This document shows positions 1 through 4,436 of a DNA stretch of 4,436 nt, one piece after another. The number at the start of each line of letters is the position of its first letter. The first letter of the stretch is position 1. This stretch comes from a virus (taxonomy: Duplodnaviria > Heunggongvirae > Uroviricota > Caudoviricetes). The notes beneath the pieces are model-generated. The model ran no database searches, was not told where the DNA came from, and saw only the letters and a list, made by a program, of their open reading frames with translations. The stretch lies in the IMG/VR virus record IMGVR_UViG_2582580962_000008; one strand, written 5' to 3'. The position numbers were made by a program, and so were the translations under genes.

Positions 1-1
1 A

Positions 2-220
2 GAGCAAGTGGCTGATTGTTACCGTCTGCGATGGCAAATTGAACTGGCTTTTAAGCGGCTCAAAAGTTTGCTGCACCTGGATGCTTTGCGTGCAAAGGAA
101 CCTGAACTCGCGAAAGCGTGGATATTTGCTAATCTACTCGCCGCATTTTTAATTGACGACATAATCCAGCCATCGCTGGATTTCCCCCCCAGAAGTGCCG
201 GATCCGAAAAGAAGAACTAA
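2..220 (+). CDS. insL: IS4-family transposase (IS186 InsL-like), C-terminal fragment; the 5' end is outside the window
   Basis: Frame is open from the window edge to TAA at 218-220. The translation ...VADCYRLRWQIELAFKRLKSLLHLDALRA... carries the Y-x2-R-x3-E-x6-K motif typical of IS4-family DDE transposases. The IS186 terminal repeat lies about 150 bp downstream. Confidence 0.8.
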   Translation, partial: EQVADCYRLRWQIELAFKRLKSLLHLDALRAKEPELAKAWIFANLLAAFLIDDIIQPSLDFPPRSAGSEKKN

Positions 221-368
221 CTCGTTGTGGAGAATAACAAAAATGGTCATCTGGAGCTTACAGGTGGCCATTCGTGGGACAGTATCCCTGACAGCCTACA
301 AAACGCAATTGAAGAACGCGAGGCATCGTCTTAACGAGGCACCGAGGCGTCGCATTCTTCAGATGGTT

Positions 369-391
369 CAACCCTTAAGTTAGCGCTTATG
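369..391. repeat. Right terminal inverted repeat of IS186 (23 bp)
   Basis: CAACCCTTAAGTTAGCGCTTATG is the reverse complement of CATAAGCGCTAACTTAAGGGTTG, the IS186 terminal sequence as I remember it. It is followed immediately by a GGG-TAAA-CCCC target-like sequence. Confidence 0.65.
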
Positions 392-630
392 GGGTAAACC
401 CCGAAACCATGCTGGAAGGTGTGAAACGCTACGCGGGCTGGGTATCTGCGATGGGCAATAGCGGCACACAATTTGTGAAACAGGCTGTCACGTTCTTTGG
501 TCCGGATCGTCATTTCGAAGAATCCTGGGAAGTTCCTGCGGTATCTGCAGCCAGACGCGAGGACCCGTACTTCAAAGCCAGTTACGACAACGTGGACTAC
601 AGCCAGATCCCGACAGGATTCAGGGGGTGA
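392..630 (+). pseudogene. Probable 3' remnant of a phage ORF interrupted by the IS186 insertion (hypothetical protein, C-terminal ~79 codons)
   Basis: Frame 1 is open from inside the IS end to TGA at 628-630. No convincing RBS precedes the internal ATG at 409. The stop overlaps the RBS and start of the next gene (GGGGGTGATCATG), a sign of a once-functional coupled gene. The translation (...GWVSAMGNSGTQFVKQAVTFFGPDRHFEESWEVP...YFKASYDNVDYSQIPTGFRG) matches no family I can name. Confidence 0.4.
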
Positions 631-632
631 TC

Positions 633-1121
633 ATGAGTCTGATGAACGATGTACAGAAATTCATTGAAGCCCATCCGGGGTGTACTTCAGGTGACATTGC
701 GGATGCTTTTGCTGGTTACTCACGACAGTGCGTTCTGCAGTCAGCAAGCAAGTTACGTCAGAGTGGCCGTGTGGCTCACTGTTGTGAAGGGAAAACACGC
801 AGACATTTCCCACACCAGGCTGAGATATCGCAGGAGGAGAAACTGCAACCTGTTCTTGAAACCATACCTGTGCGCAATTTCTATGTCGGCACTAACGATC
901 CCCGGGTGATTTTGTGCCTGACCCGCCAGGCGGAAGAACTGGAGTCCAGGGGCTTATACCGTCGTGCTGCAACCGTGTGGATGGCGGCATTCCGTGAAAG
1001 CCACTCCCAGCCAGAACGAAACAATTTTCTGGCGCGTCGTGAGCGGTGCTTACGGAAAAGCAGAAAGCGCGCTGTAGCGGGTGATGAGTGGTATCTGTCA
1101 GGGAATTACGTGGGGGCTTAA
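633..1121 (+). CDS. PerC-like transcriptional regulator family protein with an N-terminal extension (about 162 aa)
   Basis: ATG at 633 follows a GGGGG RBS (623-627); the track start at 627 is a GTG inside that RBS. The C-terminal half carries a PerC/Pch-type motif (AEELESRGLYRRAATVWMAAF), matched from memory against EPEC PerC and EHEC Pch proteins. The stop TAA at 1119-1121 overlaps the next start (TAATG). Confidence 0.55.
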   Translation: MSLMNDVQKFIEAHPGCTSGDIADAFAGYSRQCVLQSASKLRQSGRVAHCCEGKTRRHFPHQAEISQEEKLQPVLETIPVRNFYVGTNDPRVILCLTRQAEELESRGLYRRAATVWMAAFRESHSQPERNNFLARRERCLRKSRKRAVAGDEWYLSGNYVGA

Positions 1122-1774
1122 TGAGTAATAAATATTGCCAGGCGCTGGTGGAACTACGGAACAAACCAGCCCATGAACTGAAGGAAGTGGGCGATCAGTG
1201 GCGCACGCCGGACAACATTTTCTGGGGAATTAACACCCTGTTTGGCCCGTTTGTTCTGGATCTGTTTACTGACGGTGATAACGCCAAATGTGCCGCGTAT
1301 TACACGGCGGAAGACAACGCGCTGGCACATGACTGGTCAGAACGTCTTGCGGAGCTTAAAGGTGCTGCCTTTGGTAATCCCCCGTACAGCCGCGCCAGTC
1401 AGCATGAGGGACAATACATCACCGGCATGCGTTACATCATGAAGCATGCCAGTGCCATGCGTGATAAAGGCGGGCGCTATGTTTTCCTGATCAAAGCGGC
1501 CACCAGCGAAGTGTGGTGGCCGGAAGATGCAGATCATATTGCTTTTATTCGCGGGCGTATTGGTTTTGAACTGCCAGCCTGGTTTATCCCGAAAGACGAA
1601 AAGCAGGTGCCAACAGGTGCTTTCTTCGCTGGTGCTATTGCTGTTTTCGACAAGACCTGGAAGGGAGCGGCAATCAGCTACATCGGGCGCGATGAACTTG
1701 AGGCATGTGGTGAGGCATTTCTGGCGCAGGTTCGCCAGCAGGCGGAAAAACTGGTCAGGGAGATGGCGGCATGA
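1121..1774 (+). CDS. Phage Dam-family DNA N6-adenine methyltransferase (orphan)
   Basis: ATG at 1121 is preceded by a GGGGG RBS (1112-1116) and overlaps the upstream stop; the track start at 1088 is an upstream GTG. The protein has the (D/N)PPY catalytic motif of N6-adenine methyltransferases (AAFGNPPYS) and an N-terminal WRTPDNIFWG...FVLDLFTDGDNAKC region typical of the phage Dam family. The stop overlaps the next start (ATGA at 1771-1774). Confidence 0.85.
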   Translation: MSNKYCQALVELRNKPAHELKEVGDQWRTPDNIFWGINTLFGPFVLDLFTDGDNAKCAAYYTAEDNALAHDWSERLAELKGAAFGNPPYSRASQHEGQYITGMRYIMKHASAMRDKGGRYVFLIKAATSEVWWPEDADHIAFIRGRIGFELPAWFIPKDEKQVPTGAFFAGAIAVFDKTWKGAAISYIGRDELEACGEAFLAQVRQQAEKLVREMAA

Positions 1775-2097
1775 CGACATTAACTCAATGCCAGCAGCAG
1801 GTGCTGGATATGCTGATTTCTTATCAGAAAGAACGTGGCTTCCCGCCAACCAATCAGGAGGTGGCAACCATGCTGGGATACCGTTCGGTGAATGCAGCGG
1901 TGGAGCATCTTCGCGCACTGGAGAAAAAAGGTGTCATCACGATAAAGCGTGGCGTGGCCCGGGGTATCACTCTTCATACCGCGGTGAAGGACGACGACAG
2001 CGAGGCGGTCGGGATTATCCGCGCCCTGCTTGCCGGTGAGGCAAACGCCAGGCTGCGTGCAGCCCACTGGTTACATGAGAGGGGCCTGAAAGTATGA
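1771..2097 (+). CDS. LexA-like protein consisting of the N-terminal winged-helix DNA-binding domain only (108 aa; no S24 peptidase domain)
   Basis: A GGGAG RBS (1758-1762) precedes the ATG. The protein aligns by eye over about 65 residues with the E. coli LexA N-terminus (LTxxQQxVxDxI...GxPPTxxExAxxLGxRSxNAAxEHLxALxKKGVIxIxxGxxRGIxL), including the RS-NAA-EHL recognition-helix region. It ends about 40 residues after the DNA-binding domain with a LexA hinge-like LLAGEANA segment and no Ser/Lys catalytic core. The stop overlaps the rusA start (ATGA). Confidence 0.85.
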   Translation: MTTLTQCQQQVLDMLISYQKERGFPPTNQEVATMLGYRSVNAAVEHLRALEKKGVITIKRGVARGITLHTAVKDDDSEAVGIIRALLAGEANARLRAAHWLHERGLKV

Positions 2098-2489
2098 AGC
2101 TAATACTGCCTTTTCCGCCCAGCGTGAACACGTACTGGCGACACCCCAACAAAGGGGCGTTTGCTGGTAAGAGCCTGATAAGCGCGGCGGGGCGAAAATT
2201 CCAGAGCGCGGCGTGTGCAGCAATAGTTGAGCAGTTACGTCGTCTGCCGAAACCAACGTCGGCACCTGCTTCAGTGGAGATCGTGTTGTTTCCTCCGGAT
2301 AACCGGATCCGCGATCTGGACAACTATAACAAGGCGCTGTTTGACGCCCTGACCCACGCGGGTGTGTGGGAAGACGACAGCCAGGTGAAAAGAATGCTGG
2401 TGGAGTGGGGACCGGTTATCCCGGAAGGGAAGGTCGAGATCACTATCAGTAAGTACGAAAAAGCGAGTTGCAAATTAGCAACTCGGTAA
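2094..2489 (+). CDS. rusA: RusA-family Holliday junction resolvase (crossover junction endodeoxyribonuclease)
   Basis: The N-terminal LPFPPSVNTYWRH matches the RusA LPWPPSxNxYYRH motif. The catalytic block RDLDNYNKALFDALTHAGVWEDDSQV corresponds to E. coli RusA D70/D72/K76/D91 ([28 protein letters not shown]). ATG at 2094 overlaps the upstream stop; TAA at 2487-2489. Confidence 0.9.
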   Translation: MKLILPFPPSVNTYWRHPNKGAFAGKSLISAAGRKFQSAACAAIVEQLRRLPKPTSAPASVEIVLFPPDNRIRDLDNYNKALFDALTHAGVWEDDSQVKRMLVEWGPVIPEGKVEITISKYEKASCKLATR

Positions 2490-2651: not shown

Positions 2652-3467
2652 ATGAATCAGTTGCTTGTAATTGATGGCGTTTCTGTGCGCCAGTACTTCG
2701 AATCTAACTACTGTCTTAACGACCTTCAGAAAGCTGCTCTTCTTGCCGCTGGTGAGAATCGCTCCTCCCGTTCGCTGGAAGTTCACGAGTTTATGCGTCG
2801 TCCTGAAACGAAGGCTCTTGTGGAATTATTGGAAGAAGAAACTACGGGAGATTCCCGTAGTATTCCTGTCATCACCATTCAGGGGCGCAATGGTGGGACG
2901 TATGTCTGTAAAGAGCTGGTCTATGCATATGCAATGTGGATCAGCCCGGCATTCAGCTTAAAAGTGATACGTACTTTTGATGCGCTTCATAATTCATCAC
3001 CAGAAGAAACCACATCCGACAAAATTAAATCCGGGGTCATTCTGCTTGAATCAGCAGCAAAGACTCTAAATCTGTCAAACTCCTCGAAACTTGGTGCATA
3101 CCAGAAATTATCAAAGGTAGCTGGTCTTCCTGAACTTATGCCGATCTATGCCATTGATGCACCTGCTGATGCGCCAGATGGTTCAAGCCGCCCTACGCTG
3201 TCGCTGAGTGCACTGCTGAAGCAGTATGGTATCCGCCTGACGGCTAATCAGGCATATCACCAGATGGCGAAGCTGGGGATCGTTGAACAACGCGAACGAT
3301 ACAGCCGTACCGCGATTAACAACATCAAAAAATTCTGGTCGCTGACAGCGAAAGGCTGCATGTTCGGCAAGAACATCACCAGTCCTGCAAATCCGCGCGA
3401 GACGCAGCCGCATTTCTTCGAATCCCGATTCCCTGAGCTGTTAAAGCTGCTCGATACCGTTCATTGA
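2652..3467 (+). CDS. KilA-N domain protein (antirepressor-like or Roi-like DNA-binding protein; C-terminal domain uncharacterised)
   Basis: ATG at 2652 follows a GGAG RBS (2642-2645) with a 6-nt spacer; the track start at 2640 is a GTG overlapping that RBS. The N-terminal domain has the KilA-N hallmark block GTYVCKELVYAYAMWISPAFSLKVI (family pattern GTWVHPxLAxxFAxWLSPxF) and the upstream YCLNDLQKAA segment. The stop TGA at 3465-3467 overlaps the RBS of the next gene. Confidence 0.8.
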   Translation: MNQLLVIDGVSVRQYFESNYCLNDLQKAALLAAGENRSSRSLEVHEFMRRPETKALVELLEEETTGDSRSIPVITIQGRNGGTYVCKELVYAYAMWISPAFSLKVIRTFDALHNSSPEETTSDKIKSGVILLESAAKTLNLSNSSKLGAYQKLSKVAGLPELMPIYAIDAPADAPDGSSRPTLSLSALLKQYGIRLTANQAYHQMAKLGIVEQRERYSRTAINNIKKFWSLTAKGCMFGKNITSPANPRETQPHFFESRFPELLKLLDTVH

Positions 3468-3474
3468 GGTGACC

Positions 3475-4436
3475 GTGAGAGCACTACTGACCCCTGAAAT
3501 TGCCCCGCGTATGGGGATCGTATTGTTCAGACCAGGTTCAGAGCTGATGCCCCTGTTTATGCAGGGGCGTGTCCTGCTGGAGCCTGAGCCGGAGCGTTAT
3601 TCATCTTTCGCCAGTGGTGCCGTTCCGGCGGCATCACAACCGCTGGCGGATGATCCTGCCGTTCGGGCCGTGTTCCGCAATGAGGCAGTGATCCGTCGTG
3701 CTGGTGGCGTGGAATGTCTTGAAAGCTGGTTACTTCGTGAAAAAGGCTGCCAGTGGCCTCATTCCGACTGGCACAGCGAGAACATGACCACAATGCGACA
3801 CGCTCCGGGTGCAATCCGTCTGTGCTGGCACTGCGATAATCAGCTGCGCGATCAGTTCACGGAACGGCTGGAATCAATGGCAACGGATAACTGTGCCCGC
3901 TGGGTGTTGTCTGTTGTGCGTCGGGATCTCGGTTTTGATGACAGTCACGTTGTGACAATGCCGGAACTGTGCTGGTGGCTGATTCGTAATGATCTGGCGG
4001 ATGCCTTACCGGAAAGTGCAGCCCGTAAGGCCCTGAGATTACCGAAGCCTGTTGTGCCGTCTGTCACCCGGGAAAGTGACCTTGTGCCTTCGGTTACTGC
4101 CACCAGCATCATCCAGGATAAGGCGAAAAAGGTGCTGGCGCTGAAAGTGGATCCGGAGTCGCCGGAGTCTTTTATGTTACGCCCAAAACGTCGTCGCTGG
4201 GTTAATGAAAAGTACACGCGCTGGGTTAAGACGCAGCCGTGTGCATGTTGTGGTAAGCCAGCCGACGATCCTCATCACCTGATTGGTCATGGTCAGGGTG
4301 GAATGGGTACAAAAGCGCATGACCTTTTTGTGTTGCCTTTGTGCAGAAAACACCATGACGAACTGCATGCGGATACCGTGGCATTTGAAGAGAAGTATGG
4401 TTCCCAACTGGAGCTGATATTTCGTTTTATCGATCG
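3475..4436 (+). CDS. DUF968-like prophage protein with a C-terminal Cys/His (HNH-like or zinc-binding) cluster; the 3' end is outside the window
   Basis: An uninterrupted frame-1 ORF runs from GTG at 3475 (GAGG RBS at 3466-3469, 5-nt spacer) to the window end, about 320 codons. It is absent from the track because no stop falls within the window. The C-terminal region CACCGKPADDPHHLIGHGQGGMGTKAHDLFVLPLCRKHHDELH is the conserved DUF968-type Cys/His block as I recall it (K-12 Qin YdfU is the family member I have in mind). The start codon choice (3469, 3475 or ATG 3511) is uncertain. Confidence 0.8.
   Translation, partial: MRALLTPEIAPRMGIVLFRPGSELMPLFMQGRVLLEPEPERYSSFASGAVPAASQPLADDPAVRAVFRNEAVIRRAGGVECLESWLLREKGCQWPHSDWHSENMTTMRHAPGAIRLCWHCDNQLRDQFTERLESMATDNCARWVLSVVRRDLGFDDSHVVTMPELCWWLIRNDLADALPESAARKALRLPKPVVPSVTRESDLVPSVTATSIIQDKAKKVLALKVDPESPESFMLRPKRRRWVNEKYTRWVKTQPCACCGKPADDPHHLIGHGQGGMGTKAHDLFVLPLCRKHHDELHADTVAFEEKYGSQLELIFRFID

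Follow-up and report, generated by a model that had tools for sequence, protein, structure and literature searches.

An IS186 element has very probably inserted by simple transposition in the replication-initiator gene of a prophage, splitting the gene. The window, the whole stretch of 4,436 nucleotides analysed here, is 100% identical over 4436 bases to the entire draft contig JJLQ01000119.1 (L011) of assembly GCA_000627315.1. It holds the final ~390 bp of IS186; the left terminus of the element and the left-hand duplication of the target lie outside. The window shows the right junction only because the draft assembly broke inside the multicopy IS, and the insertion accounts for the position where the draft contig ends. 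The features around the junction are as follows. Reference loci are E. coli CP027586 (L001, empty site), CP053731 (L002) and NZ_AP042598.1 (L003), both occupied, and the draft contig JHDJ01000045.1 (L019).

1 to 220, plus strand: 3' end of the insL transposase gene, last ~72 codons, stop codon TAA at 218-220 (K-12 IS186A at 100%, PF01609, NF033592, and a gene call at 1-220 in the source contig).
221 to 368, plus strand: right-hand non-coding part of IS186, from the transposase stop to the terminal repeat (100% identical to K-12 IS186A).
369 to 391, no strand: right terminal inverted repeat of IS186, 23 bp, CAACCCTTAAGTTAGCGCTTATG (complementary to the left end in L002 and L003).
391 to 402, no strand: right-hand copy of the target-site duplication, GGGGTAAACCCC (direct repeat in L002, left copy in L019, empty site in L001).
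391 to 630, plus strand: C-terminal 79 codons (249-327) of the replication-initiator gene (collinearity with L001, phrog_270, phrog_26426, SfV orf39 and mEp460).

The first-pass annotation had called the start of the window IS186 and had placed its right end at 369-391, and alignment to IS186 bore out both calls. Window 1-393 was 100% identical to positions 952-1344 of the 1345-bp IS186A feature of K-12 MG1655, which confirms the end, and the right arm CAACCCTTAAGTTAGCGCTTATG was 100% complementary to the left arm CATAAGCGCTAACTTAAGGGTTG in the full copies at the same site (L002 and L003). At a coverage of 80% or more, window 1-391 was found in 2682 E. coli records, and in 2680 the identity was ≥99%. 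The feature annotated at these places is "IS4-like element IS421 family transposase." ORF 8-220 encodes the C-terminus (70 aa) of the InsL transposase. It matched the profile PF01609 (DDE_Tnp_1) at 4e-10, above the cut-off, and the NCBIfam IS4 transposase profile NF033592 at 1.7e-15, under the full-length cut-off, as expected of a fragment. The full 370-aa transposase gene is present in L002, L003 and L019. On sequence identity, the element at the left end of the window is assigned to IS186 (isoform IS421) of the IS4 family.

Directly after the IS end the window reads GGGTAAACCCC, and with the terminal G the interval 391-402 becomes GGGGTAAACCCC. This is the single match to GGGG-N(3-7)-CCCC in the 4436 bases, and it is placed exactly at the IS end. 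Shuffled sequence gave 0.28 expected matches per shuffle and at least one match anywhere in 36 of 200 shuffles; the informative part of the motif is that its sole copy in the window coincides with the IS end. With the IS limits set at ATAAGC...GCTTAT (1337 bp) the duplication measures 12 bp; with C...G as the IS ends it measures 10 bp, GGGTAAACCC. The empty site in CP027586 reads GAGGGGGTAAACCCCGAAACC, and the target GGGG-TAAA-CCCC is made by the codons E-G-V-N-P (GAG GGG GTA AAC CCC) of the replication gene. The IS186 target has been defined as GGGG(N6/N7)CCCC, with cores of 6 bp at 41, 7 bp at 16, 4 bp at one and 5 bp at one of 59 sites; single sites are hit repeatedly, and the palindromic motif lets the element enter either way round (Lee et al., 2016, PMC5009759). 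The near-palindromic G-run/C-run target recognized in the first pass matches this published type, though the present site (N4, or N5 with the fifth G) is a minor class of it, in agreement with the published rule rather than an extension of it.

Among homologues of the replication gene, most close ones read ...REGIKPETML... where the window allele reads ...NEGVNPETML.... The GVNP string occurred in only 4 of the 120 cluster representatives listed, and the window form NEGVNPE in one of them, P0053. Read from these protein strings, it would then be only the NEGVNPE allele of this mosaic replication gene that carries the IS186 target.

Queries with window 300-1100 and with the whole window against complete E. 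coli genomes returned hundreds of loci in which the match starts at 391. All 49 of the 49 matching phage records also align from 391 on, which is the pattern of an empty site; they include mEp460, SfV (orf39, "replication protein"), Stx2c phages, 2H10 and Ayreon. In CP027586 the site lies inside a single 984-bp CDS (3257-4240) for a "replication protein" of 327 aa (WP_106913354.1). Window position 391 equals L001 position 4001, the first base of codon 249, and 391-630 is collinear with L001 4001-4240. In the window, a TAA at 376-378 in the IS repeat closes this frame; its open part starts at 379, four codons before the end of the IS, and stops with TGA at 628-630. The earlier description of a frame open straight out of the IS is correct, and the split phage gene proposed with it is seen in the empty-site orthologues as one continuous 327-codon gene with the junction at codon 249. 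The function that was hit had been placed upstream of the junction; here the proposal has to be corrected, as the gene hit is the replication gene itself.

Gene callers report a 73-codon ORF at 409-630, which is an internal-ATG remnant of the split gene. Since the junction falls at codon 249 of a continuous 327-codon gene, 409-630 is a gene fragment. The first-pass annotation had considered in the alternative that it is a complete gene starting at the junction, and the orthologues instead read through as 327 codons. By inspection, no Shine-Dalgarno-like sequence was found at a useful distance before the ATG at 409. The GenBank entries EYD91110.1, EYE08692.1, EYE10470.1 and EZJ32960.1 carry the 73-aa remnant under the name "paaX family domain protein," and the remainder of its cluster consists of "partial" fragments of the replication protein. 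The paaX label on 409-630 is a misannotation of a replication-gene fragment. The same stretch is matched by phrog_23060 (76 positions, function unassigned there), a family that may itself consist of replication-gene fragments.

The intact orthologue matched phrog_270 ("replication initiation protein") at 7e-76 over residues 2-326, and the window stretch 391-630 scored 1e-23 with phrog_270 and 2e-36 with phrog_26426. The C-terminal ~130 residues of the intact protein match phrog_26426, phrog_1701 ("DnaD-like helicase loader," covering residues 182-304) and phrog_9327 ("primosomal protein"). Searches of the replication protein against Pfam gave no family at E≤0.01, the best being HTH_36 at 0.055, and nothing usable at E≤10; among PDB sequences there was no relative at E≤1. 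As Pfam and PDB offered no relative, the replication label is carried only by the PHROG matches and the source annotation. The gene keeps its place in the early-right operon, with Rha/small ORFs before it and the PerC-like gene after it.

We examined the left side of the insertion in related records. In CP55_Sichuan (CP053731, L002), IS186 sits at this very base pair but reversed, flanked on both sides by GGGGTAAACCCC, and the repeats are spaced 1349 start to start, which is 1337 + 12. For a co-oriented insertion, the predicted left-junction protein has replication residues 1-252 followed by ISANLRVVVLRLI, 265 aa in all. An exact look-up found this 265-aa fusion on record as EYE09185.1 of E. 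coli 1-110-08_S4_C2; a homologue search with the fusion protein returned full-length or partial cluster representatives only, none with the IS-derived tail. The sibling draft contig JHDJ01000045.1 (L019, GCA_000601215.1) reads ...GAGGGGGTAAACCCC joined to ATAAGCGC..., then the complete IS, then ...GCGCTTAT, where the contig ends. In longer form its left flank is ...TTGAACGAGGGGGTAAACCCC joined to ATAAGCGC, and it carries the matching 12-bp duplication copy. The right-junction contigs of the same assembly matched the window at 100% (L005, starting exactly at GGGGTAAACCCC) and at 99.98% (L008). The left-end duplication that had been looked for is present in CP053731 and in the sibling draft GCA_000601215.1; from the window's own assembly, GCA_000627315.1, the left junction and the left duplication copy were not recovered. 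The repeats in L002, the fusion EYE09185.1 and the L019 junction led us to conclude that the event was a simple transposition with a 12-bp duplication.

L005 and L008, both from GCA_000601215.1, cover the same right-junction region with a one-base difference over 4.2 kb. The pair could represent two copies of the prophage region or a redundant assembly of one.

In complete E. coli genomes the site was counted ~2000 times, spread over 1623 genomes. It was occupied in 9 records, which fall in two lineages, CP55_Sichuan and the eight OkiPb isolates. Among draft and metagenome loci, the same orientation as in the window was seen in the window clone (five NCBI assemblies), in L006/L018 and in L004; further occupied contigs were L007, in the opposite orientation, and L013, whose contig does not fix the orientation. 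Where the orientation is known (six occupied loci), four share that of the window, and one metagenome sample with this orientation has both junction contigs (L006 and L018). A search for the exact junction gave 0 matches in viral contigs and 0 in GTDB species-representative genomes, and an exact-junction metagenome scan gave one short contig, L004. Over the 730 bases right of the junction there are three to four occupied haplotypes. One of them, type A, matches the empty L001 exactly and holds the IS in either orientation (the opposite one in L002 and L007), and mismatches over this flank numbered 44 in L003, 49 in L004 and 5 in L013. At least four independent hits at the site are probable, a number that inter-prophage recombination could lower. 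It adds to the natural cases a short-spacer (N4) target of IS186, hit repeatedly and in both orientations. The identity of the IS and the 730-bp flank to reference copies points to a recent event rather than long retention.

The eight OkiPb isolates have the same right junction, and their IS186 left end adjoins another G/C palindrome, GGGGTGATACCCC (region inspected: L003, NZ_AP042598.1, OkiPb01701, 2740-4100). In IS-free genomes GGGGTGATACCCC sits in a gene called anti-phage dCTP deaminase, beside the prophage integrase. OkiPb lacks the whole segment that begins with the dCTP deaminase gene, includes the immunity region and ends at replication codon 248. As read from these flanks, the OkiPb state is an IS186-associated deletion between two target-type sites.

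A similar history for the window's own genome is very unlikely; in it, IS186 would be what remains after an IS-mediated deletion or IS186 x IS186 recombination that removed the immunity region along with the gene's N-terminal part. The OkiPb strains show exactly such a state, with the right junction shared and the left end at GGGGTGATACCCC, and the window contig stops inside the IS, so that its left side is outside the contig. However, the sibling assembly with the identical right junction has the left junction in the replication gene together with the 12-bp repeat, and the co-oriented metagenome sample has both junction contigs, L006 and L018. A chimeric join made in assembly at a repeat, with 409-630 as a small gene in its own right, is scarcely credible, even though the short contig starts within a multicopy IS, gene callers give a 73-aa protein at 409-630, and phrog_23060 (~76-aa proteins) matches there. 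The junction recurs in five NCBI draft assemblies, in the complete OkiPb genomes and in independent metagenome assemblies, every empty-site orthologue reads through as one 327-codon gene, and the cluster of the 73-aa ORF otherwise holds only "partial" replication-protein fragments. We rejected the chimera and the independent gene because the junction recurs across assemblies and the orthologues are continuous. Simple transposition into the replication gene remains the preferred reading.

The window continues downstream of the split gene as follows.

627 or 633 to 1121, plus strand: PerC-family gene (YfdN-like), the first intact downstream gene (PF06069 at 4e-09; a PerC regulator in all orthologous loci).
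1121 to 1774, plus strand: Dam methyltransferase (PF05869).
1771 to 2097, plus strand: LexA-DNA-binding-domain protein (PF01726).
2094 to 2489, plus strand: RusA (PF05866).
2652 to 3467: KilA-N gene.
From 3475: DUF968 gene.

The PerC-like start overlaps the stop of the split replication gene, and the downstream genes are all full length with overlapping stops and starts. The order in SfV is cro, orf36-38, orf39 (replication), orf40 (PerC-like), dam, orf42 (LexA-like), orf43 (RusA), orf44 (KilA-N), orf45 (DUF968) and Q, and from this match in gene order the window is part of a lambdoid early-right operon. The Dam/LexA-like/RusA block (1121-2489) is phage early-right operon context and is outside the IS event.

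The first-pass annotation had raised the idea that read-through from the IS drives the PerC-like/Dam/LexA-like/RusA block. That the insertion persists since the co-oriented IS supplies read-through or outward transcription of this block in a repressed, immobile prophage is a reading we consider unlikely. The transposase and the downstream genes are co-oriented, as are 4 of the 6 occupied loci of known orientation, and the downstream ORFs are all intact and stop/start-overlapping. A terminator scan of 1-1200 gave a single weak terminator-like hairpin at 108-121, within the transposase gene, and no terminator-like site between the transposase stop (220) and the junction, which would leave the way open to read-through. 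Yet a promoter scan of 1-1200 gave no sigma-70-like site, and in the literature we found no paper describing an outward IS186 promoter. Insertions in the opposite orientation are present at the same base pair and on the same flank haplotype (L002 and L007), so the event can be explained whatever the orientation; target specificity by itself gives IS186 both orientations at its sites (PMC5009759). The identity of the IS and the 730-bp flank with reference copies, which indicates a recent event, also speaks against persistence by benefit. For SfV a putative dam promoter is annotated within the PerC-like ORF; it is a weak one, its -35 TTGCGC corresponds to TGGCGC here, and it was given no weight. 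No Rfam family reached the gathering threshold in the window.

The stretch 2490-2651 separates rusA from the KilA-N gene, and in it TACTGTATTTATGAACAGT at 2535-2553 on the plus strand fits the LexA SOS-box form TACTGT-N8-ACAGT. It is the sole such match in the window, with 0 in 200 shuffles, and it has 4 mismatches to what we take to be the 20-nt SOS-box consensus. This candidate box lies ~100 nt upstream of the KilA-N-domain gene (2652-3467), and the block also encodes a protein with a LexA DNA-binding domain only (1771-2097), which suggests that the KilA-N gene may be an SOS-controlled antirepressor-like gene. At 2463-2486, a 7-bp inverted repeat (GAGTTGC-AAATTA-GCAACTC) spans the last rusA codons, with no T-run after it.

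We propose that an IS186 copy of the K-12 type transposed into GGGG-TAAA-CCCC of the replication-initiator gene of an SfV/mEp460-like lambdoid prophage, with its transposase gene pointing the same way as the early-right operon, and duplicated the 12 bp GGGGTAAACCCC. What accounts for the choice of site is the known preference of the IS186 transposase for such targets, and not selection for a downstream effect. On this reading the N-terminal piece has 252 codons plus 13 IS-encoded codons (ISANLRVVVLRLI) and then a stop, and the C-terminal piece is the promoterless 79 codons of window 391-630. The cut falls in the middle of a conserved C-terminal module at residues ~198-326, the part matched by the DnaD-like helicase-loader and "primosomal protein" PHROGs. 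With the cut within the module (EFEQAWQEYPKRAGG...ARLNEGVNP followed by ETMLEGVKRYAGW...), neither fragment keeps it. The prophage is probably unable to start its own replication after induction, as judged from domain position only.

Nothing in these results departs from known biology, and the event is already known in kind. Its significance is slight beyond annotation, where the remnant ORF is relabelled and the prophage is marked as probably replication-defective. A wider role is a long shot, namely that the GGGGTAAACCCC codon string of this widespread replication-gene allele is a recurrent IS186 "grounding" site by which inducible SfV/mEp460-like prophages are made immobile, sometimes with larger deletions. 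If this were so, the PerC/Dam/LexA-like/RusA genes and the SOS-box/KilA-N genes would stay intact, a co-oriented IS might express them to the benefit of the host, and deletions of the OkiPb type would occasionally be seeded.

Compared with IS186A/B/C of K-12 (isoform IS421), the element itself is no different, with the same 23-bp repeat, a DDE transposase and 100% identity over 393 bases (IS186A); only its location in a prophage replication gene differs. The flanks of K-12 IS186A, GGGGATCACTCCC and GGGATCACTCCCC on the two sides of the IS, likewise show a 12-bp duplication with a G-run/C-run palindrome at its centre. The lon promoter of E. coli B is given as an IS186 hot spot in the statement of SaiSree et al. 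(2001) cited in PMC3045373, and fimA and menC were hot spots in mutation-accumulation lines (Lee et al., 2016, PMC5009759). The present site is like lon, fimA and menC in its GGGG...CCCC palindrome and in repeated independent hits at one base pair in both orientations. It differs in its spacer of 4 bp (5 with the fifth G) against the modal 6-7 bp of Lee et al. (PMC5009759), and in its low occupancy, 9 records in 2 lineages among ~2000 copies in complete genomes.

The intact form of the split gene is found in SfV (orf39) and mEp460, with the same PerC-like/Dam/LexA-like/RusA neighbours. The decayed counterpart of the window block is yfdO-yfdN-yfdM of the K-12 cryptic prophage CPS-53, where yfdO has just its final ~60 nt in common with the window gene and was truncated by a different history, not by IS186. 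K-12 yfdO was also considered as the 4-bp-core insertion of Lee et al. and was rejected, as it is without the GGGGTAAACCCC site. A further parallel is the insertion of IS186 in repF of the IncQ plasmid pQGS, which gave a non-autonomous replicon (PMC6925257). There too, IS186 entered a G4/C4 site in the replication module of a mobile element and autonomous replication was inferred to be lost. The pQGS case comes from laboratory evolution on a plasmid with measured consequences, whereas the present one is a natural prophage read from sequence.
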